Of a stretch of DNA of 64,000 bases, positions 11,142 to 36,429 are shown one piece after another. The notes below the pieces were generated by a model. That model had not been told where the DNA came from. It was given only the letters and a program-made list of their open reading frames with translations, and ran no database searches. Source of the stretch: a virus; IMG/VR virus record IMGVR_UViG_3300042965_000128, positions 7,234 through 71,233 of that record. One strand, 5' to 3'. How positions within the stretch are numbered: position 1 is the first letter of the stretch; each line of letters opens with the position of its first letter. Both the position numbers and the translations under genes were made by a program.

Positions 11142-11528
11142 ATGATGAGGGTTAATAGGGTTATAAGCCGGTTGTATGGTATTTTGCGTGGCGATTTGAA
11201 GCGTTATGCCTCTACGGTTTATATTCTTAATACGCCTGTTTTGACGGATTGGGGTGAGTATGTTTTTCGTCCGATAAGCGTTGATGAGGCGCTTGAGTTG
11301 TTGGAGGGTGGTTTTGTTTCGGCGGTTGGGCATGAGGGGACAGCACAGATTCTGTCACAACTGCTCGGTGTGAAGGTTCCTGTGAGTCGGATTCAGATAA
11401 GGATGAATGTTGGTGATAAGGCGTTGGTTTTTAGGGTTTTAACGAGGTTACCTGAGGGGAAGGTTTTGACAGAGGAGGAGTTAAGGAAGCTTCCGTGGAC
11501 GATTGGGTTGTTGGAGCGTGTGCGGTGA
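11142..11528 (+). CDS. acrIII-1: AcrIII-1-type viral ring nuclease (DUF1874 / STIV B116-like) with an N-terminal extension
   Basis: YILN start of core, FVSAVGHEGTAQILSQLLG with the catalytic His, GDKALVF, RLPEGKVL. Confidence 0.85.
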   Translation: MMRVNRVISRLYGILRGDLKRYASTVYILNTPVLTDWGEYVFRPISVDEALELLEGGFVSAVGHEGTAQILSQLLGVKVPVSRIQIRMNVGDKALVFRVLTRLPEGKVLTEEELRKLPWTIGLLERVR

Positions 11529-11761
11529 TGTTTGGTTGGAATATTAGGGAGAGGTTTATTGGTTTTTTGAAGTCGTTGGTAGAGGTGGTCAGGCGTGATG
11601 ACGTAGTTAGTTTGGCTTTTGGTTGTCTCTTTGTTTTGCTGGGATTCGTGGGAGTTTTGTTGAATGCAGAAGGGTTGATTTCGAGATTGCTATCTCTGGT
11701 TTATTGTATTGTGATGATTGTGGGAGTGTGGCTCGTTTTTAACAGTTTAGGGAAGGGATGA
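11528..11761 (+). CDS. small two-TM membrane protein
   Basis: TGATG overlap; two hydrophobic stretches. Confidence 0.55.
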   Translation: MFGWNIRERFIGFLKSLVEVVRRDDVVSLAFGCLFVLLGFVGVLLNAEGLISRLLSLVYCIVMIVGVWLVFNSLGKG

Positions 11762-12159
11762 GGAGATATTTTTTTGTGCTTTATAAGAATCCGTCAAGCA
11801 TTGATGATAGAGAGAATTATGTGGTTGTTTCGCCTGGAGAGTTATTGCTGGCGGTTGGATGGGTGCGGGCGATTATTTCCACAATTGCGATTTTGAGAAT
11901 GGACTTTGAAGCAATCACTTTAAAGCCCTTCATTATTGCTGAGAAGGTTCTTTCAACGAGAATGTTTGTTCATGAATTCACACATTTGAGGCAACAAGAA
12001 GATGATGGACTGATAAAATTCTGTATCAAGTATCTGTGGGAGTGGTTTAAAAATTTCTTTTTCAAAAAAGAGACAAGGTTTAATTTTTTTGAGTCTTATT
12101 GGAATATATCTTATGAGGTTGAGGCGAGGGAGGCAGCAGAGAATTTTCAGAGGGCATGA
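11758..12159 (+). CDS. small zincin-like HEXXH protein (DUF4157-like)
   Basis: FVHEFTHLRQQ...YWNISYEVEAR. Confidence 0.65.
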   Translation: MRRYFFVLYKNPSSIDDRENYVVVSPGELLLAVGWVRAIISTIAILRMDFEAITLKPFIIAEKVLSTRMFVHEFTHLRQQEDDGLIKFCIKYLWEWFKNFFFKKETRFNFFESYWNISYEVEAREAAENFQRA

Positions 12160-12737
12160 GAGTGGGATATTTGGTTGAGGGTGCGATAGGTTTTTCAAGT
12201 TCGCCTTCGTGGATTAGCAGGGTGATAAGGTGGTTTACGAGGTCGAGGTGGTCGCATTGTTTTGTTGTTTGGAAGGTGACTGGACCTGACGATGATGATA
12301 TTCTTTTGGTAGAGGCGGGTGAATTTCAGGTTCAGATAGTTACATTAGGAAAGTATATGAGAGGAAATTACGAATTTGAGATTTTAGATGTATCTTCGTT
12401 GATAAATTCAGAAAAGAAAAAAGAAGCGGATAAAAAGTTAGTGTCAAAAGTTGAAACGCTTTATGGCTGGCTACAATTGATAGGATTTGGAATTGTTATT
12501 TTGTTAAGAAAGTGGTTTGGCTGGAAGAGTAAGAAAAATATCTGGGGGCGGGGCAAAATCTGTTCAGAAGTTGTTGCGGAGTATTTGATTGATTGCGGAA
12601 TTGATTACAAAAGTTTATGCGGTGACAAGGATATAAATTTAATCTCACCAGAGGATATATATAAGTTCTTGGAATCAAGGAATTGTGATGTTATAATGTT
12701 TAAAAGATTTAACAAAAAAAGTAATAGGAGGTGCTGA
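12156..12737 (+). CDS. circularly permuted NlpC/P60 (YiiX/YebB-like) hydrolase
   Basis: IRWFTRSRWSHC (His first), YGW, KICSEVVA (Cys last). Confidence 0.75.
   Translation: MRVGYLVEGAIGFSSSPSWISRVIRWFTRSRWSHCFVVWKVTGPDDDDILLVEAGEFQVQIVTLGKYMRGNYEFEILDVSSLINSEKKKEADKKLVSKVETLYGWLQLIGFGIVILLRKWFGWKSKKNIWGRGKICSEVVAEYLIDCGIDYKSLCGDKDINLISPEDIYKFLESRNCDVIMFKRFNKKSNRRC
12669..12697 (+). promoter_or_regulatory. sigma70-like promoter inside the 3' end of the upstream gene
   Basis: TTGGAA, 17-nt spacer, TG-T-TATAAT, upstream of 12739. Confidence 0.55.
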
Positions 12738-12738
12738 T

Positions 12739-12969
12739 ATGGCGAGAGAAGAAAGGATGAAAGAGTTGGTGGTAGGGAGGTTTAGGAGTGCCCTGAATAT
12801 ACTCTGGGATGCTCTTGAGTTGTTTGAAACTGCCGCGGAGGGTTTAGAGGATTTAGTGGATGAAGATCCTATAGGTTACAGGGCAAGGTATGAGAGGATA
12901 AGGGAGGATCTGAGAAGGATTTGGGACGCGGGAGAGAGGATAGAGAGGGAAATTAGGCGTTTAAGGTAG
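12739..12969 (+). CDS. helical-hairpin paralog family member (divergent)
   Basis: RBS AGGAGGTG; all-helical E/R-rich 76 aa. Confidence 0.65.
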   Translation: MAREERMKELVVGRFRSALNILWDALELFETAAEGLEDLVDEDPIGYRARYERIREDLRRIWDAGERIEREIRRLR

Positions 12970-13268
12970 TGGGTGTGGTGATGGATAGGACTCTGGCGCG
13001 GTTGCTTCATTTTTTATCTGAGAGGTCGTTTGAGCGGCTTCGTGATAGGGTATATGCATTGAAAGAGTTTTTAATGGATAAGATGCTAGGTGAGCTCGCA
13101 GGTTATGTTAAGGAGTTTAAGAGCGTTTTATCAAAAGATGAATATCAGACTTTGATTAAGTTTTTTATGGATTTTGAGGATGTGGTTAAGGAGGATCTGG
13201 AAGAACTTTTGAATGATGTTGAAGCACTTTTGAAGAGGCTGGATAAGATAACTGGTTTCAAGCGTTGA
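12969..13268 (+). CDS. helical-hairpin paralog family member
   Basis: central SVLSKDEYQTL turn. Confidence 0.65.
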   Translation: MGVVMDRTLARLLHFLSERSFERLRDRVYALKEFLMDKMLGELAGYVKEFKSVLSKDEYQTLIKFFMDFEDVVKEDLEELLNDVEALLKRLDKITGFKR

Positions 13269-13315
13269 TCGGTTGTTTGAATTAATTCGGTTTGTTGTGG
13301 TGATTTAAATTAAAA

Positions 13316-13516
13316 TTGATTGAGACCGAGGGGATTAAGTATATTGGTTCCAAGGAAAGATTACTGCCTTATATTTTGGATTTTGTTCGGCGGTTGCGTC
13401 CTCGTGTGGTGCTTGATGCGGTGGGCGAATGGGTGGGTAAGGGGAATGCTGGTGATAAGGAATTTTTGTTTTTTGTTGAGAATGTAGTCGCTGATGGAAG
13501 GGATCAGACGAATTGA
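13316..13516 (+). pseudogene. remnant of a D12-class adenine methyltransferase
   Basis: IKYIGSKERLLPYI...VVLDA (motif X and start of motif I) then stops after 66 aa; no DPPY. Confidence 0.6.
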
Positions 13517-14472
13517 TACTGATGAGGAGCTGCGTTCGAGGTTGCTATCCTTGTGTCGTTTGAGTTACGGTGATATTTGGGTGGATGCGGTTAGGGGTCA
13601 CAGGGTGGGTGTTCTGGATGCTACTAAATTGGAGGATGTGCAACGGATTATGGGTGGGGAAAAAGGCGCGGTTGGTATTGAATGACCCGCCCTATAATTT
13701 GGTGGTTGGTAATGCTAAAAGTGCGTATCTTTTCAAGGTTGATATTGGGGCTTATTTAGAATTTTCACGGGGGTGGATCCAAAATGCTGTTTATGTCATG
13801 GATGCTGATTCGCATTTGTATATATGGGTGGGTGCAGATTACAGGGATGGTTTTCAGCCCCTTCCTGACTTAATGATTTTATTGCGTGAGTTTAAGGAGT
13901 TGAAGCCGCGGAATTTTATCACGATGCGTAATCAGCGTGGTTATGGGACGCGGCGGAATTGGATGTGGGTAAGACAGGAACTTCTTTATTATGTTAAGGG
14001 TAATCCGGAGTTCTATGTGGATGCGGAATATACTGAAATTCCGAAGATAGTCAGGGGTTATTATAAGAAAGTAGGAGGTGAGGTTAAGGAGAATTTAGTG
14101 CGGAGCAGGTCTAAATTTATAAGAGCGGGGAATGTCTGGGTTGATATACAGCAGGTTTTTTACAGGATGGAGGAGAATGTTCCGGGGTGTTATGCGCAGA
14201 AGCCGTTGAAGGCGATTGAACGTATAATTCGTTCTGCCACGAAGGAAGGTGAGTTGGTGGTAGATTTTTTTGCACACTCTGGTACGACGTTGATCGCTGG
14301 AGAAAGACTGAAGAGGGTGGTATATACTTTTGATATTGATCCTGTATTTGCTGAAATAACGATAAGGAGATTGGAGCGTTATAGAAGCACAGGGAAAACG
14401 GGCTGGCAGTGGGAGAGTCCCTTTCCTGAGTTAGGTAGTGCTTTTTTAGTTGGATTGGGTGTTTGGGCTTGA
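13494..14472 (+). pseudogene. N6/N4 DNA methyltransferase (beta class) split by a +1 frameshift
   Basis: ORF 13494 ...VLDATKLEDVQRIMGGEK joins ...ARLVLNDPPYN of ORF 13570 if one A is removed from A5 at 13660-13664; QKP and VDFFAHSGTT downstream. Confidence 0.75.
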
Positions 14473-14513
14473 TTTTTGGAAAATGCTGGTTTAGGATTTG
14501 ATTTGTAGATTGA

Positions 14514-15185
14514 TTGCAGATGCGGGCGATGAAGGTGGCATTGGATATAGGTCATTTGTATAAGAGGAGCAATCCGGGTGATAAGGGAGCATTGTATGAA
14601 GGAATTTATGAGGCTGATTTTGTATTTAATTATGTGAGGAAAGCGTATCAATTACTGGAGGGTGAAAACGGTATTGAAGTTTATATGTCTGATCCCTTGA
14701 AGGGTATTCTGGTTGGTGATTATTGGGAAAGAAGGAGGTGGGTGAATGAGCGGTTTGGTGAGACTGATTTGTATCTTCAATGTCACTTGAATAGTGGGAA
14801 TGGTAATTATGCTTTAGTGATGTGTGTATTGGGTTTTGATTATGATGAGAAGGTTAATAGGGTTAGGCCAGTTGTTCCAGATGAGCTGGTTGAGATTGAA
14901 AGAATGTATGGTCAGGTTTTAGCGATGAATACGCAGAAGTTTTTAGGGCTTCAGGTTAGGGATTTTGATGAAGCGAAGGATTTTGTCTGGAGTTTGAAGA
15001 GGGGAGAAAGAGGGTATGATATAGTTAAGCAGTTCAAGTGTCCCGCATTTGTCTATGAGCCCTGTTTTATAGATAACACATATCATTTTGAGAATTTGAA
15101 AAGTGGGGTGTGGGTAGAGGCTATAGCGAAGGCTATTTGGAGGTCATGTATTGAAATCAGGGATAGGATTAGTTATAATGGGTGA
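14514..15185 (+). CDS. N-acetylmuramoyl-L-alanine amidase (Amidase_3) endolysin
   Basis: VALDIGH, IYEAD, CHLNS, YEPCFID zinc-amidase motifs. Confidence 0.8.
   Translation: MQMRAMKVALDIGHLYKRSNPGDKGALYEGIYEADFVFNYVRKAYQLLEGENGIEVYMSDPLKGILVGDYWERRRWVNERFGETDLYLQCHLNSGNGNYALVMCVLGFDYDEKVNRVRPVVPDELVEIERMYGQVLAMNTQKFLGLQVRDFDEAKDFVWSLKRGERGYDIVKQFKCPAFVYEPCFIDNTYHFENLKSGVWVEAIAKAIWRSCIEIRDRISYNG
15151..15179 (+). promoter_or_regulatory. sigma70-like promoter inside the amidase 3' end
   Basis: TTGAAA, 17-nt spacer, TATAAT. Confidence 0.65.
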
Positions 15186-15187
15186 AG

Positions 15188-15213
15188 GATTAAGGAATTT
15201 AAATAAGGAGGTG
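15188..15213 (+). repeat. duplicated 26-bp leader/RBS, copy 1
   Basis: GATTAAGGAATTTAAATAAGGAGGTG; 24/26 identical to 15540-15565. Confidence 0.75.
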
Positions 15214-15218
15214 CTGTT

Positions 15219-15527
15219 ATGCGTAGATATGGGATGACTTTGGAGGAGTTTGTGGAGGAGATGATAGCGATGGGGAGGGAGTTGGTTAATATGGGTTATA
15301 AGAGGGTGGATGAGTTGAGGCAGTTTTATGGTAAGGTAGATGAATTGAGCAGGTTGCTTGATGAGGCGCATATTGGTGGTGAGTTGTCGACGCGTGAATA
15401 TAGAAATTTAAATGAAAGGCTCACGATGATAATGGATATGGTGAAGGATGCGTCCAGTATAGGTAAGCGTGCTGTGGATGCGTTGAATAAATTTTTAATG
15501 GATGTAGGCGGTTTGTTAAAAAAGTAG
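15219..15527 (+). CDS. helical-hairpin paralog family member
   Basis: starts MRRYG; turn EAHIGGELSTREYRNL. Confidence 0.8.
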   Translation: MRRYGMTLEEFVEEMIAMGRELVNMGYKRVDELRQFYGKVDELSRLLDEAHIGGELSTREYRNLNERLTMIMDMVKDASSIGKRAVDALNKFLMDVGGLLKK

Positions 15528-15539
15528 GTTTAGTGAGAA

Positions 15540-15565
15540 GATTAAAGAATTTTAATAAGGAGGTG
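15540..15565 (+). repeat. duplicated 26-bp leader/RBS, copy 2
   Basis: GATTAAAGAATTTTAATAAGGAGGTG. Confidence 0.75.
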
Positions 15566-15569
15566 TAGC

Positions 15570-15872: not shown

Positions 15873-15955
15873 GGCGGTAACATCGTTTTGTGGTCGTCTG
15901 GTCTCTGTGGAGGCAGATGCGGTTTGGTAGTTGGAATTCGATTTAGTATTTTATT

Positions 15956-17772: not shown

Positions 17773-17800
17773 TCAAGAATGGTTTTAAGGAGGTGATAAG

Positions 17801-22354: not shown

Positions 22355-22954
22355 ATGAGGCGGTTGTATCGTGGCGAGATAGGGGATGCTATTAAGCGTT
22401 TAGGTCAGTTGGTTGAATATGTGGCGGATGATGTGGATTTGGTTCGTGATTTTTCGCATTGTTTAGAGGAGGTTATTAGGTGTTTGGAGGGTAAGGTTCT
22501 TCCTCGTATCAAGTTTGGGGATAGTGTGATAGAGGAGATGGGTGGTAATCCTCGTCGGTTTGCGCGGCATTTTATGGAATTTTGGTGGAGTGCGGTTGTG
22601 GTTCTTTTTTGTTTGATGGGTCTGAGGCGGTCGATATCTTCGGAGCGTGCGTTGGGTGAGTTCAGGCGGTTGTGGCGTCGGTGGAAGTTATTTATGGATG
22701 ATGTTGGTGAGCGTTTCAGGTGGAGTGTGGGGTTGTATTGGGGGAAAGAGCGGATTAGGGCGAGGACGCTGGGTGAGTTTATAGACAGGTATCCCTTTAA
22801 GCATTTGTGGAAGGATGAGTGGGGGAGGGGTTCGGGTTGTGTGATATGTGCTTATGAGTTTGTTCCGAAGGAGAGGGTTTTTCCCTTGCTTGATTTTACG
22901 ACATATATGGAGATGCTGAATTCTTTGCGTAATGGAGGGGGATTTGAATCTTAG
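22355..22954 (+). CDS. hypothetical protein, paralog of the C-terminal domain of the 22932 ORF
   Basis: C..EV..CL, GGNP..FA..F..FW, YP..HLW and CxxC shared. Confidence 0.7.
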   Translation: MRRLYRGEIGDAIKRLGQLVEYVADDVDLVRDFSHCLEEVIRCLEGKVLPRIKFGDSVIEEMGGNPRRFARHFMEFWWSAVVVLFCLMGLRRSISSERALGEFRRLWRRWKLFMDDVGERFRWSVGLYWGKERIRARTLGEFIDRYPFKHLWKDEWGRGSGCVICAYEFVPKERVFPLLDFTTYMEMLNSLRNGGGFES

Positions 22955-24191
22955 GCGTTTAGTGTTTGATGTTTATGTTCTTGAGTATATAAGGCGATTT
23001 GATAAAAAGGCGGACTATTTATTTAGGGAGAAGTTATGGGAGCTTGTGGATGTGGTTTTGCGTATGGTTGTGGATGCGGTTTTAGAGGAGGCGCGGTATT
23101 TGTTGGATGCGCCTGGTGTGCGTGGTAAGGCGGCGCTAAAATCTGATTTGAACAGGCTTTTTGAGTTAGAGGAGGTTGATAGGTTAGATGAATTTTTTGC
23201 GCTGGCTAAGGATGTTGCGAGGCGTGCTCGTGAGGCGGGAATGCTTTATTTTTCGCATGGCTGGGAGGGGGTGGTTGACAAGGCGTTAGAGCTTTTGCGG
23301 ACGAGTGATTCGTCTACGGCTATGATTTTGGTGGATCAGATTAAGGATATAGCGCATCTGACGGGTATGGTTTTGCCTGAATTGTCGAGGGTAGTGAAGG
23401 AGATGGAGGGTAAGCGGATAGGTGAGATTGTGAGGGATTGCTCGGATGAGGTCAAACGCATTTATGATAAATTGCGATTGGTTTTTCCGGAGGTTCGTGT
23501 AGCGCAGTTGAGGATTGAGAAACCTTCTGATTTTGGTAGGGAGGAGGAGCGGGTGATACCTGGTGTTAAGCCTATGAGGTTGGTGGATATTAAGAAGTGT
23601 ATAATGGAGGTTACGAGTTGTTTAGATAGTTTGCTGCCGGCTTCGAGATTTGAATTAAGCAGGAGTGAGGATGAGGGTGGTAATCCTACGGAGTTTGCGG
23701 GTATATTTACGCATTTTTGGTATTGTTGTAATGCGGTTTTGACTTTGTTTGAGGAAATAAGTTTCAAGCCTGGGATGTTGAGTGCGGTTGATGCAGGTGC
23801 GTTTCGTGATGCGGTTGTGCGTTACTGGGAACATTTTTTGGAGGAGCGAATAAGGAATTTTGATTCGAAGATTAGGGTTTTGTGGGCGCGGTGGCAGGTA
23901 GATGGTAGGAGGATTACGGATTTTGCGAGTTTTTTGAGGAATTATCCGTATAGTCATTTGTGGGATTGGGTTAAGGCGGCTGCTGAGTCGCGGTGTTGTG
24001 ATTGTGTGAAGGAGATGTTGCGTGTGCCTGTGAGGCGTGATATGGATTTGGATCGTTATAGGGACAGGTTAAGGAGGGTTTTTGCGGTTTTAACGGTGCT
24101 TAAGAAGGGTCCGCGTGTGGTAGGTGAGGTTTTGCAGCGGTTGGCGTTTGTTGAGTTCGCTTTAGGTTCAGGTTATGTTGAGGCGGACTAA
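22932..24191 (+). CDS. two-domain hypothetical protein
   Basis: helical N-domain, linker PEVRVAQ, Cys-rich C-domain paralogous to the 22355 ORF. Confidence 0.7.
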   Translation: MEGDLNLRRLVFDVYVLEYIRRFDKKADYLFREKLWELVDVVLRMVVDAVLEEARYLLDAPGVRGKAALKSDLNRLFELEEVDRLDEFFALAKDVARRAREAGMLYFSHGWEGVVDKALELLRTSDSSTAMILVDQIKDIAHLTGMVLPELSRVVKEMEGKRIGEIVRDCSDEVKRIYDKLRLVFPEVRVAQLRIEKPSDFGREEERVIPGVKPMRLVDIKKCIMEVTSCLDSLLPASRFELSRSEDEGGNPTEFAGIFTHFWYCCNAVLTLFEEISFKPGMLSAVDAGAFRDAVVRYWEHFLEERIRNFDSKIRVLWARWQVDGRRITDFASFLRNYPYSHLWDWVKAAAESRCCDCVKEMLRVPVRRDMDLDRYRDRLRRVFAVLTVLKKGPRVVGEVLQRLAFVEFALGSGYVEAD

Positions 24192-25008
24192 GAAGTTTTT
24201 GAATGAGGTTTTGGTTCCTCTGGAGGAGGGTGATAGGGGTTTATTTGTGATCCAGCATCATTGGGCTACGCAGGAGCATTGGGATTTGCGGTTGGAGTGG
24301 CCTGTTGCTGAGGGTGTTGATATTAATGAGGTTTTGGTGAAGGAGTGGGAGGGGAAGGCGGTTGATGAGGGTGATGTATTGACGAGGGTGAAGCGTAGGG
24401 TTTTGCGTAGTTGGGCGATACCGAAGCATCGTTTGCCGAGGAGGGTTGGTGAGCGGTTGATGATGTCTGAGACTGAGTTGCATCCCTGGGAGTATAAGGA
24501 TTTTGAGGGTGAGATACCTGAGGGTAAGTATGGTGCGGGTGTTGTTGAGATATATGATTCTGGGGAGTATGAGGTGCTTGATTATAAGCCTGATGAGGAT
24601 CGTTTGGTTGTTTATTTGAGGGGTGACAGGATTGATGATGTATTTGCGTTTGTGCCCGCGTTTAGGGGGGAGGGGAAAGGGAATCAGTGGTTGGTGATAA
24701 AGGTTGATAAGCGTAAGTGGCTTAGTAGGGAGGCTTCGGTGGTTGTGGCGGTGCATGGTTTGGCTGGTAGTTTGTTGCGTCGTGCGATACGTAAGGATTG
24801 GACGAGGGAGGGTCTTGAAGAGTTATCGGATAAGGAGTTGCAGATGGATCATTTTTTGTGTCATGTTGGTGTGCGTGCGATTAGGGAGGGTTCTGGTTTT
24901 GGTGATTGGACGATAAAGGAGCTGAAGGAATTGCATGATGCGCTGGTGGAGGAGGCTGCGAGGAGGGAGTTGGATTGGGGTTTAGAACATGAAACACCTT
25001 TAGAGTAG
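24175..25008 (+). CDS. LigD-type 3'-phosphoesterase domain + small His-rich C-terminal domain
   Basis: FVIQHH, HWDLRLE, LRSWAIPK, HPWEYKDFEGEIPEGKYGAG.V.IYDSGEY. Confidence 0.85.
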   Translation: MLRRTKKFLNEVLVPLEEGDRGLFVIQHHWATQEHWDLRLEWPVAEGVDINEVLVKEWEGKAVDEGDVLTRVKRRVLRSWAIPKHRLPRRVGERLMMSETELHPWEYKDFEGEIPEGKYGAGVVEIYDSGEYEVLDYKPDEDRLVVYLRGDRIDDVFAFVPAFRGEGKGNQWLVIKVDKRKWLSREASVVVAVHGLAGSLLRRAIRKDWTREGLEELSDKELQMDHFLCHVGVRAIREGSGFGDWTIKELKELHDALVEEAARRELDWGLEHETPLE

Positions 25009-25012: not shown

Positions 25013-25951
25013 ATGCGTGGAATTTATTTAGTTAAGCCGCATGGGACGTGGTTGATGGAAGGTTATAAGACGCATGTTATTAAGAAGAAGTATTTTCCTA
25101 ATATGGTTGGGGTACCACTTGTTTTGGTTGAGGGAGACAAGGCGTTGGGTGTTATAATTCTTGAGGAGCCTGAGGAGATTGAGGGTTGGGAGGGGTTTAG
25201 GCGTACGCGGGAGTTGCACAGGGTATCGGATGAGGAGGCGGTGAGGTGGTGGGGTGATTTTGATGTGTTGTATTTGTATCCTGTTAGGCGTGTGTTGCGG
25301 TATAAGGAGCCGAGGTCGGTTGAGGTGCCTGTGGGTGTTCAGACTTTTATAAGGGATGTGGTTTTCAAGGAATCTGGTGGTTATTGTTATCCGTCGTGGT
25401 TTGAGCGTATTGGTGATTCTGGTGCTGATGCTGTGGAGGAGGTGCGTAGGGTGATAAAGGAGGTGATGGATTATGGTGAGTGGGAGAAGTATTTTGAGCG
25501 GTTGAGGAGTGTTATTGAGAGAGGTAAGCGGTTGAGGAGTGAGGCGGAGGTGTATTCTTTGATGGATTTGTATAATGATTATGAGGGTGAGGGGCTTGTG
25601 TGTGTTGATGTAGATGGGACGATTTTTAAAAGAGCGGAATTTCCTTATGTGGGTGAGTTGATGGAGGGTGCGCGTGAGGCGTTGAGTGAGTTGCGCAGGA
25701 GGGGTTATAAGATAGTGATTTGGAGTGGGCGGAATAGTTCGTTGGTGAATACGCCTTTGTTGCGGAGTATATCTTTGAATCTGGTGAAGGTTGCGTTGGA
25801 TGTGAATGGTGTTGAGTATGATGCGATTGATTATGGTGAGGCTGGAAAGATACCTTGTGAGATTTATATTGATGACAGGGCGATTGGTTTTAGGGGAGAT
25901 TGGCGTGCGGTTTTGGAAGAGGTTGAGAGGCTTGAAAAGCTGTCAATATGA
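25013..25951 (+). CDS. ASCH-like domain + HAD-family phosphatase fusion
   Basis: GIYLVKPH...GYKT (ASCH-like); VDVDGTI, IWSGR, KIP..IYIDD (HAD motifs I-IV). Confidence 0.75.
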   Translation: MRGIYLVKPHGTWLMEGYKTHVIKKKYFPNMVGVPLVLVEGDKALGVIILEEPEEIEGWEGFRRTRELHRVSDEEAVRWWGDFDVLYLYPVRRVLRYKEPRSVEVPVGVQTFIRDVVFKESGGYCYPSWFERIGDSGADAVEEVRRVIKEVMDYGEWEKYFERLRSVIERGKRLRSEAEVYSLMDLYNDYEGEGLVCVDVDGTIFKRAEFPYVGELMEGAREALSELRRRGYKIVIWSGRNSSLVNTPLLRSISLNLVKVALDVNGVEYDAIDYGEAGKIPCEIYIDDRAIGFRGDWRAVLEEVERLEKLSI

Positions 25952-27365: not shown

Positions 27366-28148
27366 TTGTGGATGAAGAGGTGTTTGGCCAGTCAGGTTGA
27401 TGCGGTGCGAGACAGGCTTGCGCCTGATATTTGGTATTGGGATGGTAGGGGGTATGTGTTGCGTCGTGAGATTTATGAGCAGATATTGTGGTTATTGGAG
27501 GATATGTTTGCGCAGTTTGGTGGTTGGAGGGGTTTGGTGAGGCGAGTTTGTGTGGTGGGTAGTTTGACGACTTTGCAGTATCATGAGTATACGGATTTTG
27601 ATTTGAATATAGAGGTTGATAAGCGTGAGTTTGCGCGCAGGTTTGGTTTGGAGTGTGGTGGTGATTTGTATGGGTGTATGATGAGGCGGTTGTATGGTTG
27701 GTTGGAGGGTGTGCCTGTGGAGGGGACGTTAAGGACGTTTAGTTTGCATGTTTATTTTTATCCGTTTATTTTGGCGAGTGATAATATATATGTGGTTGAT
27801 TTAGGTGGTAGGGGAGGAGGGTATTGGAAGAAGGGGATGAATTTGGTGCCGTGGTGGTTTGATCCTGATAAGGCGTTTAGGGTGATAAAGTTGCGTGTGG
27901 ATGCGTTGAAGCGTGTGTTTAGTAGTTTATTGGGTGCTGGATGCAGGGATAGTAGGGTGGTTGCTTATTTTAAGGCGTTGGAGTGGTTTTTTAAGGAGTG
28001 GAGGCATAGGCGGTTTGTGTTGGCGAATCGTGGGAGGGGTCATTATTTAGCGTATAGGTTTAGTTCGGATTGGGATAGTGGTAATATAGCGGTGAAGTAT
28101 TTGGGTGAGTGGGCGAAGCCATATAAGTTGTTGATTAAGAAGGGATAA
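27366..28148 (+). CDS. Pol-beta superfamily nucleotidyltransferase
   Basis: VVGSL...YHEYTDFDLNI fits hG[S]..DxD. Confidence 0.65.
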   Translation: MWMKRCLASQVDAVRDRLAPDIWYWDGRGYVLRREIYEQILWLLEDMFAQFGGWRGLVRRVCVVGSLTTLQYHEYTDFDLNIEVDKREFARRFGLECGGDLYGCMMRRLYGWLEGVPVEGTLRTFSLHVYFYPFILASDNIYVVDLGGRGGGYWKKGMNLVPWWFDPDKAFRVIKLRVDALKRVFSSLLGAGCRDSRVVAYFKALEWFFKEWRHRRFVLANRGRGHYLAYRFSSDWDSGNIAVKYLGEWAKPYKLLIKKG

Positions 28149-29957: not shown

Positions 29958-30034
29958 TGGTTGTGGATTTTTGGTTGATGTGGTTGAATGGATTGGTTGG
30001 TGCGGATGGTTGATATGTTTGGTGATGGATAGAG

Positions 30035-30361: not shown

Positions 30362-30376
30362 TAGGGGAGGCGCGCG

Positions 30377-30634: not shown

Positions 30635-30638
30635 AGAG

Positions 30639-30881: not shown

Positions 30882-30883
30882 TC

Positions 30884-31066
30884 ATGTTTAAGCGTTATTC
30901 GGTGGTTGAGGTTCGTGGTGTGAAGCGGGTGAATGTGTTTTGCAGGAAGTGTGGTTTCATACATGATGCTTCGGTTGATTGTAAGCTTGAGAGTGTTAAG
31001 GTTCTGGAACCTGGAGGGATTAAGATTCGTCGGAATGGGATTAAGGATGATGAGGTTGAGGGGTGA
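30884..31066 (+). CDS. small Cys-containing (Zn-ribbon-like) protein
   Basis: FCRKCGFIH. Confidence 0.45.
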   Translation: MFKRYSVVEVRGVKRVNVFCRKCGFIHDASVDCKLESVKVLEPGGIKIRRNGIKDDEVEG

Positions 31067-31993
31067 ATGATGTTTTTTAGGGTGGCATCTGTTCCGTTTA
31101 AGGTGATAGGAGGGTTTGATAAGTTCAGGCGTTATGCTGAGAGTTCTGAAGTAGCGGCTAATTTGATAGATACAGCGATTTTTGAGAAGTTGTCGCCTGT
31201 TTATAAGATCTCGCCTGATCCTAAGGATTATGGGTTTTTGTCGGCGTTGGCGGTTCGTGCGAATGTTCCGAATAATAATGGTGATGCGATATCGCGTGAG
31301 GAGCTTTTCAGGTATAGGCCGCACAGGGGGTGCAGGACATTTGAGACGTTTATAAACTCGCCATTGCATATAAATCATTTTAGTCAGGAGCCTTCGCTTG
31401 CGCGTGGTTTCATAATTGATGCGATTTATAATGACCGTGATGAGCCGTTTGAGTTTGTTGAGGTTGTTGTGGCTGTAGATAAGACGAAGGATCCTTATCT
31501 GGCGGATATGTTGTTGAGTGGTAAGATTAATAAGTTTTCGATGGGTTCGCTTGTGGAGGCGATAAAGTGTAGTTTGAGTAGTTGTGGTAAGGTGGCGCAT
31601 AGTGAGGATGAGTTGTGTGACCATTTGAAGAGGCAGCGTATGCAGTATGTGAATGGGGAGCTTGTGTTTGGCTGGAATATAGGTGTTGATTATGAGGAGT
31701 TGAGTGTGGTTTCTAACCCTGCGGAGCGGTTTGCGACAACGCGTCATATATTTGGTGGGTTGCCTTCGCATTTGACGAGTTTTGTGCGGAGTTTACCTGC
31801 GCGGACTCGTGTGGGTTTGATGGAGCGGTATGCGGCTGCGCATTCTCGCAGGGGTTTGGTGGTATGGGCGGACTTGTTTGAGCTTGATGATGCGGATCGT
31901 GCGGAGATTGCCGATTTTTTGAGGGTTTATGCGGGTCGTATTCCAGAATCGGTTGTGAGGGCGTTGAAGAAGGTTTTGTCGGTGGTGGAGTGA
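31067..31993 (+). CDS. prohead (capsid maturation) protease
   Basis: NNNGDA..REEL, TF...P.HINH, RGFIIDA, FSMG, CS..CG...CDH, ELSVVSNPA; position before scaffold and capsid genes. Confidence 0.75.
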   Translation: MMFFRVASVPFKVIGGFDKFRRYAESSEVAANLIDTAIFEKLSPVYKISPDPKDYGFLSALAVRANVPNNNGDAISREELFRYRPHRGCRTFETFINSPLHINHFSQEPSLARGFIIDAIYNDRDEPFEFVEVVVAVDKTKDPYLADMLLSGKINKFSMGSLVEAIKCSLSSCGKVAHSEDELCDHLKRQRMQYVNGELVFGWNIGVDYEELSVVSNPAERFATTRHIFGGLPSHLTSFVRSLPARTRVGLMERYAAAHSRRGLVVWADLFELDDADRAEIADFLRVYAGRIPESVVRALKKVLSVVE

Positions 31994-32019
31994 GATTTTG
32001 CTCGATTTTTGGTTTCGAT

Positions 32020-32048
32020 TTGACTTGGGTGGGTTTTTTGCATATAAT
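32020..32048 (+). promoter_or_regulatory. sigma70-like promoter for the scaffold/capsid operon
   Basis: TTGACT, 17-nt spacer, TATAAT. Confidence 0.75.
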
Positions 32049-32071
32049 TGAATTAAAGGATAAGAAGGTGG

Positions 32072-33667
32072 ATGATGTTTGATTTAAACAAGAGGCTGGA
32101 GAATTTGAAGTTGCGTTATGCTAATGCAGACCCGGTGGGTAGGGATCTGTTGCGTGATATTATTTTGAATCTTGCTGCGATGAGTGGTCAGCTTGATTCG
32201 GTGAGGAAGTGGATGGAGGATGTGGATTTGCAGCGGGTTAGGGCGCAGGAGGAAGAGAAGAGTCCGCCTGTGGAGGAAGTCAAGCCTGAGCCTGCGCCTG
32301 AGAAGGAGCCTGAGGTGGAGCCTGCGGTTGTGCCTGTGGAGGAGAAGTCGCCTGTGGAGCCTGTTGAGGAGAAGCGAGAGGTTGAGCCTGAGAAGGAGGT
32401 GTCTACAGATACGAAGTTGCTTGAGATAAGGGATGCGCTTAAGGATGTTGTGAAGCGGTTGTCGGATTTGTGGGAGAAGGTGGAGGATATAGAGGATGCG
32501 GTTGCGCAGCATAAGCGTTTGATAGAGCGGATGATGGGTTCGCCTGAAGAGTTTTTGAAGAAGAAGAAGGAGCTGGAGGAGAAGGATGTGATAACTCCGC
32601 AGGAGTTTGGATTAAGATTTTATTCAGATGAGAAGAATGGTCCGGGGAATTATAAATTTCGTATAAGGAGGAAAGCAATGGCGGAGAATAAAGAGGAGAA
32701 AAAAGAGGAGATAAAGGAGGAGGAGAAGAAGGAGGAGGTGAAGGAGGGATCACTTGATCCTACGGCGAGGAGGAAGAGAAGGCTTGCGCTGTTGAGGAGT
32801 GCGCAGGGTGATGAGAAGCCCAGGACGCTGTCGGATTTTTACAAGGTGAAGGAGGATATTGAGAAGATGAAGAAGCTGCCGCAGATACCTGAAACGCCTT
32901 ATGTTACGGAGGAGCAGTTGAGGTCAAGGTTTGAGCGTGAGAAGGAGAAGTATCCGCTGTGGTTGAAGAAGCTTGCGGCTGATTACGATGCTGACAGGAA
33001 TGTGTGGTACATATTGCATGATGGCAAGCCCCTTTACGAAGTTTCCTATTCGAAGTCGTTAGCGCCTACGGTAGATGATTTTGCGAGCAGGACATTCGGG
33101 AAGCTTCTTCTGAAGGATTTTATCCAGCTTGGTGATGAGGAGTTCATCAGGAAGTATGGTGCGAATCCATGCCCCGGTGAGGGTGAGAAGGAGGAGAAGA
33201 AGGAGCCTAAGGAGGAGAAGAAGGAAGGGTTCGAGTTGAGGTTCATGCAGGGTTTAGGGCTCGTGAAGCAGATGCTGGATAAGAACCTGGTTGATAATCC
33301 CTTGAAGGCTGCGCTGTTTGAGGAGATGACGAGGAGGGGTGTGCAGGATCCGGTTTCGATAATTGAAACCGCATTCAGGCAGGCCGCGGGAAGGTTTTTT
33401 GATACGGTGGTAGCACTTGCGAGGAAGTATGCGGATTTAGATTCGAAGACATTTGCTGAGATTGAGGCTTTTGTGAAGGAAGCGCGTGTGCAGGAGATTC
33501 ATGGTGAAGAGGATATGAGTTTTACGGAGAAGGTGGCTGCGCAGGAGTTGAGGAGAAGGGCTGCTGAAGGTTCAATTCCACTTCTGTCCGATTCGGTTCC
33601 TTACGATCCTTTGAGGGAAGCGATTCCGAAGCCACAGAATTGGCAGGCGGTGAGAAAAAATAAATAG
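32072..33667 (+). CDS. putative capsid scaffolding protein
   Basis: highly charged with P/E and EEKKEE tracts; lies between protease and capsid genes. Confidence 0.6.
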   Translation: MMFDLNKRLENLKLRYANADPVGRDLLRDIILNLAAMSGQLDSVRKWMEDVDLQRVRAQEEEKSPPVEEVKPEPAPEKEPEVEPAVVPVEEKSPVEPVEEKREVEPEKEVSTDTKLLEIRDALKDVVKRLSDLWEKVEDIEDAVAQHKRLIERMMGSPEEFLKKKKELEEKDVITPQEFGLRFYSDEKNGPGNYKFRIRRKAMAENKEEKKEEIKEEEKKEEVKEGSLDPTARRKRRLALLRSAQGDEKPRTLSDFYKVKEDIEKMKKLPQIPETPYVTEEQLRSRFEREKEKYPLWLKKLAADYDADRNVWYILHDGKPLYEVSYSKSLAPTVDDFASRTFGKLLLKDFIQLGDEEFIRKYGANPCPGEGEKEEKKEPKEEKKEGFELRFMQGLGLVKQMLDKNLVDNPLKAALFEEMTRRGVQDPVSIIETAFRQAAGRFFDTVVALARKYADLDSKTFAEIEAFVKEARVQEIHGEEDMSFTEKVAAQELRRRAAEGSIPLLSDSVPYDPLREAIPKPQNWQAVRKNK

Positions 33668-33680
33668 GAGGTGACGAGCA

Positions 33681-34376
33681 ATGATAGATACAAAAAGAAG
33701 TAGGGTAGAACAGAGGCCATTTTTCAAGGTAGATCCCACTGCGGTGTGGGAAGCGGGGCAGATAGCAACGCTAAAGAATATTGGAGGGGAGACGGTGGTT
33801 ACATTGCTGACGGATCCTGTGAATGAGGTTCCGCTTGGTGTATTCTGGAGACCGAAGGCAATAACACTTACTGAGGCTGTTAAGGAGAGGGTCAAGTTAA
33901 TTGGAACCGAGAATATTTCGCTTTCACACGCGAATATTGAGGATGCTTCAGAAATTGTGACTGATTTATCGGAGGCCACGAGGTATACAAGGGGAACGGA
34001 TTATACGATTAACTATGTGAATGGGTTGGTTGCGAGGATTGCTACGGGTGGTATTGCTGATGGTCAGGAAGTTCTTGTGACTTACAGGTATAAGAAGACG
34101 GCACAGGAGATAGCGATGCAACCACAGAGGTTTGAGCGTGTTCCTGATGCGACCCTGGGTTCCGGAATGGTAACAGTGATAATGGGGCATGCGATTATCT
34201 ATACTGACCAGTATGATACTTCACAGCAGTATTCGTTGAATGCGGCGTTGTATGTGAATGAGCAGGGCAGGTTCACTTCTGCGAATACCGGTAGCAGGGT
34301 TGTTGGAAAGGTTATAGCGGTGCCAACGGTGGGGTATCCACTGCTTGGTGTTGAATTAAGACCGACGATTATTTAA
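33681..34376 (+). CDS. putative head decoration/cement protein with an inserted beta-sandwich
   Basis: directly upstream of the capsid gene; GSGMVTV...YTDQYD...LYV...G.FT; insert RGTDYTINYVNG. Confidence 0.65.
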   Translation: MIDTKRSRVEQRPFFKVDPTAVWEAGQIATLKNIGGETVVTLLTDPVNEVPLGVFWRPKAITLTEAVKERVKLIGTENISLSHANIEDASEIVTDLSEATRYTRGTDYTINYVNGLVARIATGGIADGQEVLVTYRYKKTAQEIAMQPQRFERVPDATLGSGMVTVIMGHAIIYTDQYDTSQQYSLNAALYVNEQGRFTSANTGSRVVGKVIAVPTVGYPLLGVELRPTII

Positions 34377-34395
34377 AAATAATGTATAAGGAGGT

Positions 34396-35619
34396 GTGAA
34401 AATGGGAAATCCTTATCTACCAAAAGATATTGAGGAGTTAATACCAAAAAGAAAACCGCAGGTAGGTTCGCAGACAGAACCTCAGGTTCAGTCTCAGCCT
34501 CAGGTTTCTGGGAAGAAGATTGACCCGCTTGAGGTTGAGCAGAAGCTGAGGTGGGTGGATGCGAGGACTGGTGAGGAGATTAATCCACCCGCGTTTGGTG
34601 GTTATACCAGGGCGGGAACTCCTCGGTATAGTGAAGGCAGGATGTTTACTGATAAGGGTGAGTTGAATGCGAGTGATAAGGCGGATGCATGGAGGAATAT
34701 CCAGCACTTTTTCAACGTGTTGAGTTCTTCGAAGCCGATGTTGATACCGAGGGGGCAGACGCTTGAGCAGTATATGAGTGTTCTTGCGGAGTATCTGTCG
34801 GATCCAACTGGAGTTGGGTTTGCAAGGGTAGGTCAGGAGCTCCTCAATCCTATCAGAGAGGTTATAGATTATGAGGGTTGGGCACGAAAAATACTCACCG
34901 TGAGACCCGTTCATCGTGGTGAAGTAGTCAAATACGATAGGGATGTGTTTGTGCTTGCCTGGGTGATTGGAGAGGATGGTCAGACGCCTGAGAGTGCGGT
35001 TGGTGGTGAGCACTTCTATCCGCCTGAATTTGAGGTTACGGCACTTCCTACTCTGGAGCTGAGGAATATCTTTCAGGCACAGTATGATATAATTGCGAGG
35101 ACACAGGACAGGGCCAGGCAGGCGATTGAGTATCAGGAGGATATGGCTTGTAAGAGACTTCTCGAGAGGGCAGCAACGACTGTGAATAAGGTGATTGGTT
35201 TTTCGGCACTTGATCTCAGTTCGATTGAGCAGTTGAGGCTCCAGGTTGAGAGACACAGGTTAATTGCTGATAAGATACTTATTAACAGGGCGGAGCTTTC
35301 GGATATAATCAATCTGATACCTCAGGTTGACCCTGTTACACAGAGGACATTGTTCATGCTCGGGTATGTTGGGCAGATTTACAATATGTCCATCATTGTG
35401 AGTGCTGGTGTGAATACATTTGAGGTTGTATTGCCTGGAGAGGTATATGTGGTGACATTGCCCGAGTATTTAGGTGGAATGCCTATAAGGGTTGAGTTAA
35501 CGAGTCAGCCGGTCAATATGTTCTGGACTGGAAGGGCGGCACAGGGTTGGTTCTGGTATTCGTTGCTGTCGATGATAATAATCAATCCTGCGGGTGTAGC
35601 GAAGGGAATAAAAATTTAA
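34396..35619 (+). CDS. major capsid protein (HK97 fold)
   Basis: NPIREVIDYEGWARK, PPEFEV, YDIIARTQDRARQAIEYQED, C-terminal IINPAGV; recalled resemblance to Bxz1-like myovirus capsid proteins. Confidence 0.85.
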   Translation: MKMGNPYLPKDIEELIPKRKPQVGSQTEPQVQSQPQVSGKKIDPLEVEQKLRWVDARTGEEINPPAFGGYTRAGTPRYSEGRMFTDKGELNASDKADAWRNIQHFFNVLSSSKPMLIPRGQTLEQYMSVLAEYLSDPTGVGFARVGQELLNPIREVIDYEGWARKILTVRPVHRGEVVKYDRDVFVLAWVIGEDGQTPESAVGGEHFYPPEFEVTALPTLELRNIFQAQYDIIARTQDRARQAIEYQEDMACKRLLERAATTVNKVIGFSALDLSSIEQLRLQVERHRLIADKILINRAELSDIINLIPQVDPVTQRTLFMLGYVGQIYNMSIIVSAGVNTFEVVLPGEVYVVTLPEYLGGMPIRVELTSQPVNMFWTGRAAQGWFWYSLLSMIIINPAGVAKGIKI

Positions 35620-35640
35620 GATAAGGTAGGAGGTGTTAAA

Positions 35641-36429
35641 ATGAGAAGAGTATCAAGAGACGAGATAATAAGGGAGTTAGATGTATGTGCAGAGATGCTT
35701 GAGAAGGAGGGGTTGACTTCGTTTGCGAGGGATATAGACAAGATAACTGCGAGGATAGAGGATGGTGCGTCGTTGAATGATGTGAGTCATGATATACTGG
35801 ATGTTCTGCAGAGGCTTGAGGATGTAGCGTATTGGCGTGCTGCTGAGGAAGAAAAGAAAGAGGAGGAGAAGGAAGAGAAGAAGGAGGCTTGGTTAAGGAG
35901 AAGGTATGCTGATGAGGATGAGGAGGAGAAGGAAGAGAAGAAGGAAGCATGGTTAAGGAGAAGGTATGCTGATGAGGATGAAGAGGAAGAGGAAAGAAAG
36001 GAAGCGAGGAGAAGGGCACTGAGGAGAGCGTTGTTGAGAAGAAGGTTTGCAGAGGAGGACGAAGAAGAGGAAGAGAGGAAGGAGGCTTGGTTGAGAAGAA
36101 GGTATGCTGGTGAGGATGAGGATGAAGAGGAAGAGGAAAGAAAGGAGGCGAGGAGGAGGGCGTTGAGAAGGGCTCTATTGAGGGCAAGACTCGCTGAGGA
36201 AGAAGAGGAGAAAGAAAAGGAGGAGAAGGAAGCGGAGTTCAGACCACGACTGAGATATAGGTTCAGGAGACCACTATACGAATATGAATATGAACCGCCC
36301 TACCGTTACGAGTATGAATACGAGCAACCGTATCGTTACGAATATGAATATGAGCCACCGTATCGTTACGAATATGAGTATGAGCCCTTGCCTCGCTTGA
36401 GGAGAAGAAGACTGCTCAGGAGGATTTAG
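35641..36429 (+). CDS. repetitive Arg/Glu block protein with a Tyr-Glu repeat tail
   Basis: strong RBS; helical N-domain, repeats EEEKKEAWLRRRYA and RKEARRRALRRALL, then (YEYEYEPPYR)x4. Confidence 0.8.
   Translation: MRRVSRDEIIRELDVCAEMLEKEGLTSFARDIDKITARIEDGASLNDVSHDILDVLQRLEDVAYWRAAEEEKKEEEKEEKKEAWLRRRYADEDEEEKEEKKEAWLRRRYADEDEEEEERKEARRRALRRALLRRRFAEEDEEEEERKEAWLRRRYAGEDEDEEEEERKEARRRALRRALLRARLAEEEEEKEKEEKEAEFRPRLRYRFRRPLYEYEYEPPYRYEYEYEQPYRYEYEYEPPYRYEYEYEPLPRLRRRRLLRRI
35860..36230 (+). repeat. coding tandem repeats (60-bp unit plus larger nested units)
   Basis: 35881-35940 and 35941-36000 are nearly identical; a further copy follows near 36080. Confidence 0.85.
36277..36396 (+). repeat. 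4 x 30-bp coding tandem repeat
   Basis: TACGA(A/G)TATGA(A/G)TA(T/C)GA(A/G)... units at 36277, 36307, 36337, 36367. Confidence 0.9.

Follow-up and report, generated by a model that had tools for sequence, protein, structure and literature searches.

In staphylococcal phage 80alpha the capsid and scaffolding proteins begin with a common short peptide, which has the same motif at its end and is taken off by the prohead protease. The herpesvirus assemblin cuts at sites between Ala and Ser. Herpesviruses have the protease fused to the scaffold, where one cut frees the protease and another, close to the scaffold's C-terminal end, frees the scaffold from the capsid protein (excerpt of PMC4498786). 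The head proteases of phages T4, phiKZ, 201phi2-1 and SPN3US cut after Glu (excerpt of PMC5694885). Proteins of the AcrIII-1 family degrade cyclic tetra-adenylate, thereby defeating type III CRISPR (partial text of PMC8284326). We analysed a stretch of 64,000 nucleotides (the window; bases 7234-71233 of the single 71,233-base virus record IMGVR_UViG_3300042965_000128, labelled G000) that carries an AcrIII-1 homologue and, further downstream, a head-morphogenesis module with a putative prohead protease. An earlier note on this DNA had proposed that a short motif, (R/K)-x-(A/G/S), is shared by the head proteins and a set of anti-defence enzymes, that the protease cuts after it, and that the phage packages and injects the processed enzymes, an anti-CRISPR among them. 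We find that a capsid-cargo system is not supported here. The motif as written is too loose to be informative, and its occurrences at junctions in non-structural proteins are due to chance. In the head proteins a more restricted motif, basic-x-Ala, is real, and its conservation among relatives makes it a plausible mark of maturation cut sites.

Region 11142-36429 of the window is an ordinary stretch of a large tailed phage, in which accessory genes are followed by the head-morphogenesis module. The accessory genes encode the AcrIII-1 homologue, two DNA methyltransferases, an amidase, a lytic transglycosylase, a LigD-phosphoesterase protein and a HAD hydrolase, and the remainder of the region contains many small open reading frames (ORFs) without a family match. 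The head genes lie in the order protease, scaffold, candidate Ig-like decoration protein, HK97-fold capsid protein and charged repeat protein, and the order of this module is common to 20-odd related loci. Every long ORF of the record is on the + strand, as are all features described below. The window proteome used for counting comprised 91 non-overlapping + strand ORFs of at least 40 amino acids (20,384 residues), and the whole record 98 ORFs; these were called mechanically with the longest start taken. Related loci are labelled L001 and onwards, and homologous proteins P0001 and onwards.

Expected motif counts were obtained by shuffling within each protein, and 500 shuffles were used for tests on groups of genes. 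Across the window proteome [RK]-x-[AGS] was observed 474 times against 506.4 expected, a density of 2.33 per 100 residues. Because Arg and Lys account for 13.7% of residues, and Ala, Gly and Ser for 18.8%, the motif turns up about once per 43 residues everywhere. Early genes contained 78 copies (91.9 expected), tail genes 162 (174.1 expected) and the 39 non-structural ORFs of the region considered in the earlier note 145 (156.3 expected), with densities of 1.8-2.6 per 100 residues in each group outside the head. A comparison with early and tail proteins had been put forward in the note as a check on its proposal, and similar densities were the outcome that it had itself named as refuting. The five named cargo proteins carried 36 copies where 38.2 were expected, a number reached in 356 of the 500 shuffles, and the AcrIII-1 ORF had 1 against 3.0 expected. 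The head module of five ORFs had 60 copies against 44.8 expected (3 of 500 shuffles), which fell to 42 against 37.0 (91 of 500 shuffles) when the repeat protein encoded after the capsid gene was left out. This protein, with 18 copies versus 7.7 expected (z = 4.45), was the sole strong outlier. Its copies of RRYA, RRFA, KKEA and RKEA go back to tandem repeats in the DNA of the gene, with periods of 60 and 144 nucleotides, which explain the excess; the three RRYA copies derive from these repeats and are therefore not independent.

All peptide strings quoted as examples of the motif were found in the translations of the genes to which they had been assigned. Two of them depart from it, since KRCLA-S reads R-x-x-A and MRRLYRG has Tyr three places before Gly. 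The claim that the motif marks leader or domain junctions did not hold up, as a random interior position has the end of a motif within 3, 10 or 15 residues on either side with probabilities of 0.15, 0.38 and 0.51, respectively. Short basic N-termini had also been taken as marks of the system. The motif was present within the first 8 residues of 19 of the 91 ORFs, compared with 12.8 +/- 3.2 for interior 8-mers, and every gene group contributed to them (early 3/20, middle 8/39, head 4/5, tail 3/23 and end 1/4). Arg or Lys occupied positions 2-4 in 46 of the 91 ORFs, so that basic N-termini are general in this genome. These counts carry a caution, in that a three-residue motif built from residue classes that form a third of the proteome turns up at any junction that is inspected.

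Patterns restricted to Ala in the last position gave a different result in the head proteins. These patterns were picked after sight of the examples in the earlier note. In the four head proteins other than the repeat protein, [RK]-x-A was observed 24 times against 15.2 expected (4 of 500 shuffles); a second run gave 24 versus 15.6 for these proteins (z = 2.6) and 127 versus 147.2 for all others, a slight depletion. In the same four proteins [RK][RK]-x-A occurred 8 times (2.2 expected) and R-[YF]-A 4 times (0.5 expected), values reached in none of the 500 shuffles. The five cargo proteins were at chance for all three patterns (15 vs 12.1, 1 vs 1.9 and 1 vs 0.7, in the same order), as were the tail genes. 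Glu-type motifs were not enriched in the head proteins, with 47 versus 45.9 expected for [LIASG]-x-E and 24 versus 26.1 for [ASG]-x-E.

Conservation of the sites was monitored across 28 non-identical proteases, 15 scaffolds and 118 capsid homologues, the last being those of the 120 listed that were aligned (at least 355 amino acids); further relatives came from 50 loci of viral collections and GenBank. In the protease alignment [RK]-x-A was kept at residue 7 (22/28), residue 24 (23/28) and residue 112 (23/28), and Glu-type patterns were conserved at no position of the 28 sequences. The first of these sites is R5-V6-A7 (FRVA-S; 31079-31087), in a confidently modelled N-terminal strand (residues 3-15), and the second is R22-Y23-A24 (RRYA-E; 31130-31138), which belongs to a conserved F-x-K-x-A and lies in a modelled helix of residues 17-26. 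In the 15 scaffolds compared, a conserved basic peptide makes up the first 20-25 residues and carries two basic/Ala sites. The scaffold site R15-Y16-A17 (LRYA-N; 32114-32122), which we call N-terminal site 1, had [RK]-x-[AGS] in 12/15 and [RK]-x-A in 11/15 sequences. At R55-V56-R57-A58, followed by Gln (RVRA-Q; 32234-32245), [RK]-x-A was found in 10/15 and [RK]-A in 11/15; this site aligns with a conserved basic-basic-Ala-Gln with which the N-terminal basic peptide closes, immediately ahead of a Pro/Ala/Glu linker that is hypervariable. Over the whole scaffold alignment [RK]-x-[AGS] had 7 conserved positions compared with 1-6 for eight control patterns, and Glu-type motifs were conserved at just 1-2 positions, none of them at the N-terminus; low-complexity regions make this alignment partly unreliable. 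A further site that was absent from the earlier note, R494-R495-R496-A497 (33551-33562), lies 34 residues from the scaffold's C-terminal end. The pattern here, written after inspection like the others, is a basic residue at P2-P4 and Ala, followed by x-x-[GS]-[SN]-hydrophobic, and it was present in 20/20 split or fused scaffolds at 31-47 residues from the end. The suggestion that the protease cuts after R/K-x-small thus gains comparative support in a narrower basic-x-Ala form, which is kept at the four protease and scaffold sites named above from the note; the loose form is at chance.

The protease itself (31067-31993, 308 amino acids) was assigned through phrog_18299, annotated as head maturation protease (E = 2.2e-30). 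No Pfam family matched at E <= 0.001, with DUF3105 the only sub-threshold hit, and a search against PDB sequences returned no match at E <= 10. An alignment of 12 stand-alone sequences (the database entry of the query itself and 11 homologues) showed H104, S158 (in S158-M159-G160), C168 and C173 to be invariant, and C184 and H186 nearly so; of these, H104, S158 and H186 may contribute to the catalytic set. The residues C168, C173, C184 and H186 form a Cys/His cluster (residues 168-186) within the catalytic domain, which suggests a metal-binding insertion; such a cluster is not known from T4 gp21. Foldseek comparison of an AlphaFold2 model against the PDB gave T4 gp21 (5jbl) as the three top matches, with probabilities of 0.90-0.97, TM (template modelling) scores of 0.29-0.55 and E-values of 0.016-0.025, and the human cytomegalovirus protease at rank 38. 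The model was of modest quality, with a mean predicted local distance difference test (pLDDT) score of 64.3 overall, of 87 over residues 11-20 and of 50 over residues 1-10. An ORF of 60 amino acids (30884-31066) abuts the start codon of the protease gene. Its product begins M-F-K-R-Y-S, and a zinc-ribbon-like site may be formed by its three Cys and one His (C-x2-C at residues 20-23, His 27 and Cys 33). At 30892-30900 this ORF also contains a one-mismatch copy of the 9-mer GCGTTATGC, which is described further below.

The scaffolding protein (32072-33667, 531 amino acids) is rich in Glu and Lys, has low-complexity linkers and matched no family. We assigned it as a scaffold because of its position between the protease and capsid genes, its composition, and the homology of its C-terminal part to the corresponding part of fused protease-scaffold proteins in relatives. 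Such fused proteins are found in many related loci (950-1849 amino acids; L002 2232-5165, L003 2827-5823, L023, L028, L031 and L043-L050). The fused form has 977 residues in L002, and 977-1359 residues in L002, L003, L023, L028, L031 and others. Separate, adjacent genes encode protease and scaffold in the window and in about 20 other loci, and the split scaffold starts at a basic peptide that is internal in the L002 fused form (MAKKAMGNKAKLTKKA).

The major capsid protein is encoded at 34396-35619 (407 amino acids, counted from GTG 34396); in the database its entry has 405 and begins at ATG 34402. It has the HK97 fold, matching phrog_2522 (E = 6.2e-53) and, over residues 138-403, the phage G gp27 chain 6wkk_A in the PDB (E = 2.5e-38), and 436 homologues were found at E <= 1e-10. 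The model of this protein had a mean pLDDT of 77, with residues 1-49 below 50 and disordered, and blocks of residues 61-100 at 86-89. A tripeptide at the border of the disordered and ordered parts, R57-T58-G59 in the 407-residue numbering (34564-34572), is conserved as [RK]-x-G in 99/118 homologues. R72-A73-G74 (34609-34617, same numbering), conserved as [RK]-[SAT]-G in 101/118, lies at the turn of a confidently modelled hairpin with strands 63-68 and 74-80 in the 405-residue numbering. At the extreme N-terminus (34402-34420), although it is modelled as disordered, nearly all of the 118 homologues have N-P-Y; in a set of 60, P4 was invariant, and N3 and Y5 were present in at least 90%. This tripeptide probably acts in assembly.

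The gene on which the cargo proposal centred encodes an intact AcrIII-1/DUF1874 (STIV B116-like) ring-nuclease homologue of 128 amino acids (11142-11528). It matched PF08960 with E = 9e-28 and 96.8 bits against a cut-off of 26 (residues 34-127 of a 136-residue ORF that begins at the in-frame TTG 11118, upstream of ATG 11142) and phrog_5063 with E = 1.7e-23. There were 171 homologues at E <= 1e-5, and all 120 listed carry PF08960. The window protein keeps every column that is at least 85% conserved in an alignment of 121 family sequences. S60, G63, H64, R83 and D92 were identical in 121/121 sequences, and R102, P104, E105 and G106 in 120/121; the family has a catalytic His in a G-H motif. Most likely the protein is expressed in the normal way and breaks down cyclic tetra-adenylate in the cytoplasm. 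The gene has accessory genes of methylase and lysis type around it and is placed 20 kb upstream of the head module. PF08960 was absent from 4/4 related viral records searched, all of them incomplete (37-66%), and a limited literature search over partial texts returned no published report of packaged AcrIII-1.

An N-terminal extension of 25 residues (the leader; 11142-11216) precedes the enzyme and ends in K-R-Y-A, with RYA at 11202-11210, two residues before the VYILN core. Most of the family lacks such an extension, as 0-3 residues precede the core in 93/121 members and at least 12 in 17/121, the latter with unrelated sequences. The near-identical P0133 alone shares the leader of the window protein; P0137 (55% identical) has a loosely alignable extension of 24 residues that ends F-K-T-P-S and carries no motif. 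Concerning the start codon, no canonical AGGAGG site was found at any of five candidate starts, and the AAGGAGGTG-type ribosome site, which precedes about half of the genes, was absent at all five. The best start by position is ATG 11142, 20 nucleotides past the upstream stop. Starting at one of two TTG codons in the same frame, 11184 or 11196, the protein would have a family-typical length of 114 or 110 amino acids; a ribosome site is missing at both, however, and ATG 11142 has the better position. The leader is probably real and translated from ATG 11142.

Of the 8 copies of RYA in the 98 ORFs of the record, the repeat protein has 3, the protease 2, and the scaffold, a tail protein and the AcrIII-1 homologue 1 each. 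An identical 9-mer, GCGTTATGC, spans the end of the leader (11201-11209), the RRYA-E site of the protease (31129-31137) and the LRYA-N site of the scaffold (32113-32121), and is found only at these sites in the window. Where x-R-Y-A is encoded, the 9-mer requires no more than CGT, which makes up 21.6% of Arg codons, TAT (92%) and a G in front. We rejected it as a wider DNA motif, as one mismatch gave 10 matches against 10.1 expected, and DNA alignment of the leader with the head N-termini showed little beyond the initial ATGAT and GCGTTATGC. An extra RYA in the leader is unremarkable, because about 0.45 of some 96 other proteins would be expected to have RYA in the first 30 residues. A profile of 27 protease N-termini recovered the window protease at E = 3.2e-12; the AcrIII-1 homologue was absent from the 12 best matches listed, and the remaining matches had E >= 0.28. 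The profile of scaffold N-termini matched nothing and gave the window scaffold itself only E = 6.5; since it misses the scaffold of the window it has little power. In pairwise comparison the score of the leader with the scaffold N-terminus was reached in a fraction of 0.37 of shuffles. Homology of the leader to protease or scaffold N-termini was rejected, being unsupported by the family profiles and having weak pairwise scores. We regard the leader as probably a lineage-specific addition with a coincidental KRYA end, its likeness to head proteins being suggestive only.

Taken together, the interpretation we favour, and hold to be fairly probable, is that the region is an ordinary accessory and head module in which the loose motif occurs by chance, the basic-x-Ala sites of the head proteins are candidate cuts, and the end of the AcrIII-1 leader is a coincidence. 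The protease would have the fold of T4 gp21 and the herpesvirus assemblin and would cut the scaffold after Ala at some of the conserved sites. Such cuts would detach the scaffold both from the capsid-binding tail at its C-terminus and from the basic peptide at its N-terminus, and the disordered N-terminal part of the capsid protein would be lost by a cut near the conserved R-T-G. Several observations weigh against this interpretation. All of the cut sites are candidates from comparison of sequences, and the narrower motifs were chosen post hoc. The fold assignment of the protease is weak, with a pLDDT of 64 and no Foldseek match at E <= 0.001. The capsid protein has 6 conserved [RK]-x-[AGS] positions, not above the 3-17 of control patterns, and its R-A-G sits in a modelled hairpin turn. 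Site 7 of the protease falls in a modelled beta-strand and site 24 in a modelled helix, and the conserved sites of protease and capsid protein could, on the models, reflect structural conservation and not cleavage. In 72/118 capsid homologues [AGS]-x-E is found just before a conserved (R/K)-M-F, where a Glu-type cut is possible. RYA is rare in the record and 6 of its 8 copies lie in the head module; the 9-mer GCGTTATGC occurs 3 times in the window where 0.23 are expected, a number that none of 100 shuffles reached; AcrIII-1, protease and scaffold all start with Met-Met; and the alignment score of the leader with the protease N-terminus was reached by only 4.1% of shuffles. The observations on the proteins of the head bear on an alternative that we find possible although unlikely, in which the basic-x-Ala positions serve structure or binding (the protease's first strand and helix, and amphipathic, basic scaffold helices that bind capsid protein, portal or DNA) and cuts occur elsewhere, for example after Glu, or only in the capsid protein. 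Ala, Lys and Arg are natural in helices, and the protease sites do lie within modelled secondary structure. T4, phiKZ, 201phi2-1 and SPN3US cut after Glu (excerpt of PMC5694885), and among folds T4 gp21 matches best. However, the window capsid has Y-S-E at the position before (R/K)-M-F and its closest relative F-S-T-E, Glu-type motifs are unenriched in the head proteins and conserved at no protease and 1-2 scaffold positions, and herpesvirus proteases, with the fold proposed here, cut after Ala. In the scaffold the C-terminal site, kept in 20/20 proteins, and basic-basic-Ala-Gln both stand exactly where a conserved peptide meets a hypervariable linker, which is where cuts are expected.

The observations on the leader bear instead on cargo. 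It might be that only AcrIII-1 is packaged, with a leader that imitates the N-termini of protease and scaffold, carries the enzyme into the procapsid and is removed after K-R-Y-A, so that a ready-made enzyme would reach the host along with the phage DNA. Translation of the leader is probable, no other start being better than ATG 11142, and the leader is atypical for its family; the rare RYA marks conserved N-terminal sites in protease and scaffold as well; the 9-mer occurs at just three places, in proteins that all have Met-Met starts; the shuffle fraction for the alignment with the protease is 0.041; and P0137 has an extension that can be loosely aligned. Yet composition alone leads one to expect an early RYA in about 0.45 other proteins, the 9-mer follows easily from the codons of x-R-Y-A and has one-mismatch copies at chance, the protease profile misses the leader, and the comparison with the scaffold is unremarkable at 0.37. 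The leader of P0137 has no motif at its end, no AcrIII-1 gene was found in the four incomplete related records, and 20 kb separate the gene from the head module. We therefore consider packaging of AcrIII-1 alone improbable. In its full form, in which the phage preloads a type III anti-CRISPR whose leader copies an M-M ... (K/R/L)-R-Y-A peptide that an Ala-specific assemblin-like protease removes, it is a long shot; if true, it would provide the first packaged ring nuclease together with a new basic-x-Ala cleavage specificity in a widespread family of phage head proteases. The proposal as originally made is wider still, with R/K-x-A/G/S as the protease motif that marks AcrIII-1, the 22932 product, the LigD, HAD and NTase (nucleotidyltransferase)-like proteins and small proteins with basic N-termini. 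The quoted strings do exist, T4, phiKZ and SPN3US package internal head proteins and process them at short motifs (excerpt of PMC5694885), and EVRVA-Q sits just before the domain of the 22932 product that is paralogous to the 22355 product. Against this, the motif is at chance in the five proteins, as are the narrower motifs that are enriched in the head, and tail and early proteins have similar densities of it; the junction matches are of the kind expected by chance, at 0.38 within 10 residues, and those of LigD and HAD lie 24-43 and about 35 residues off the domain borders; two examples do not fit the motif and basic N-termini are found in half of the ORFs; and a stretch of only 5-7 removed residues could not act as a targeting leader. 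The enrichment test leaves this wider proposal close to refuted, and we give it hardly any credence. The claim of a processed and packaged cargo set that includes an anti-CRISPR is not supported, on the same counts, the motif being at chance in the named proteins and the leader unmatched by the N-terminal profile of the protease.

The remaining proteins named as cargo are encoded between 22355 and 28148. Two paralogous genes, 22355-22954 (199 amino acids) and 22932-24191 (419 amino acids), together span 22355-24191 and overlap by 23 bases. Residues 32-170 of the first product align with residues 219-363 of the second at 30% identity (BLASTP, E = 3e-17), so that the C-terminal half of the 22932 protein repeats the 22355 protein, and EVRVA-Q stands just before that half. 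Neither protein matched a Pfam or PHROG family; they share the motifs GGNP...F..FW and YP(F/Y).HLW and several Cys residues. The labels LigD and HAD were confirmed. The protein encoded at 24175-25008 contains a LigD 3'-phosphoesterase domain (PF13298, E = 3.9e-21, residues 75-160), with SREA-S and LRRA-I 24-43 residues past its end. That encoded at 25013-25951 has a C-terminal HAD-type hydrolase domain (PF00702, E = 4.6e-6, residues 156-252; phrog_1238, E = 1.8e-16, residues 193-305), the junction motif lying about 35 residues from the border of the Pfam domain. Its N-terminal part had been called an ASCH domain, a label that found no backing, as residues 1-126 match no Pfam family at E <= 1. 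The NTase label given to the product of 27366-28148 fared similarly: although its sequence can be read as containing a G-S ... D-x-D pattern, no Pfam family matched at E <= 1 and no PHROG family was found. A homologue of this gene lies in L001 at 664-1407. L001 has two paralogous NTase-like genes (664-1407 and 1756-2463) just upstream of its protease gene, and the window has a single copy 3 kb upstream of the protease.

Two further proteins complete the head module. Between scaffold and capsid genes, 33681-34376 encodes a conserved protein of 231 amino acids with an Ig-like segment (phrog_807 and phrog_18315, E of about 4e-8, residues 76-146), a candidate head decoration protein, and a homologue was found in the same position in 28/50 loci. 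The highly charged repeat protein of 262 amino acids (35641-36429) consists of a helical N-terminal domain, EEKKEAWLRRRYA(D/G)EDEEE repeats, YRYEYEYEPP repeats and an Arg-rich basic C-terminus, and alternates poly-acidic and poly-basic tracts. The tandem repeats in its gene are at 35860-36005 (period 60), 35892-36221 (period 144) and 36277-36386 (period 30), the 30-nucleotide repeat encoding YRYEYEYEPP. A homologue was detected only in L001/L004 (L001 7116-7697), with the N-terminal 49 residues 59% identical; the L001 protein, whose gene has the corresponding position, retains the helical domain as well as acidic and basic tracts, has an aromatic-Glu-Pro repeat (PYEYR), and has not retained RRYA. 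The match of the repeat protein to DUF7273 was weak and below cut-off (E = 4.7e-4), and an ESM Atlas search with the N-terminal domain returned only generic small helical models and no usable feature match. As a guess, it may be an internal head protein or one that interacts with DNA.

The base composition of the window is strongly skewed. Among its 64,000 bases 21,572 are G (33.7%) and 7,020 are C (11.0%), the GC skew is 0.37-0.63 across all 2-kb bins, and the whole record has a GC skew of 0.51 and an AT skew of -0.14. GC skew is 0.34 in L001, the closest relative, and 0.00-0.18 in more distant ones. No tRNA genes were found in the window, and neither a portal protein nor a large terminase was identified among the window ORFs scanned. 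The record that contains L001 (G001, 64.8 kb) has a CheckV completeness of only 37%; the 71-kb record analysed here may therefore likewise be a fragment, that is, a piece of a much larger phage genome.

Had the cargo idea been correct, phages could pre-load an enzyme against cyclic-oligoadenylate signalling, which would alter the view of when type III CRISPR is evaded. The result that survives is that a large family of head proteases keeps basic-x-Ala at the ends of the scaffold and at its own N-terminus. The lineage is a known one. Capsid and protease had tblastn matches in 323 and 317 phage records, and the relatives include Virus Rctr197k (44.7% capsid identity), Bacillus phage G, PaBG, phiRSL1, Erwinia Y3-like jumbo phages and 155-kb mycobacteriophages. 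Identity to relatives is below 45%, and the 280-residue chain of phage G matches the window capsid over residues 138-403 and not in the N-terminal part. The texts searched held no cleavage-site data for phage G, PaBG, phiRSL1 and their kin, and the accessible part of a bioRxiv paper on phage G mentions the capsid protein and proteases and not processing sites.

In comparison with described systems, the window resembles T4 gp21, phiKZ gp175 and SPN3US gp245 in having a protease that may be of the same fold class, with 5jbl as the best match, beside a scaffold and an HK97-fold capsid protein. The motif in those phages is A/S/G/L/I-x-E, whereas in the window Glu-type motifs are unenriched, and unconserved at N-termini. 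The internal proteins IPI-III of T4 have capsid-targeting sequences; the cargo candidates of the window show no detectable shared leader, and the enrichment in cargo that a T4-type system would lead one to look for was not seen, the narrow motifs being enriched in head proteins only. Compared with the AcrIII-1 family of STIV B116 and SIRV1 gp29, the window member has the family residues and, in addition, the 25-residue extension that 93/121 relatives are without. The protease and scaffold of the window share M-M ... R-Y-A within 17-24 residues, in a manner reminiscent of phage 80alpha, although the sequences are unrelated and the motif of the window family is basic-x-Ala. The likeness to the herpesvirus assemblin (UL26) and scaffold (UL26.5) lies in the fused forms of the phage relatives and in the C-terminal basic...Ala site present in 20/20 scaffolds. 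The window differs in that protease and scaffold are separate genes with no detectable sequence relation to the herpesvirus proteins, and its candidate cuts, which are read from sequence, would by analogy correspond to the herpesvirus release and maturation sites. The head module belongs to a known protease-scaffold-capsid lineage, in which a possible Ala-type specificity would be the new element. Cleavage after Ala, if it takes place, would be nearer to that of the herpesvirus assemblin than to that of T4 or phiKZ, and would bear on how specificity has evolved within a shared fold.

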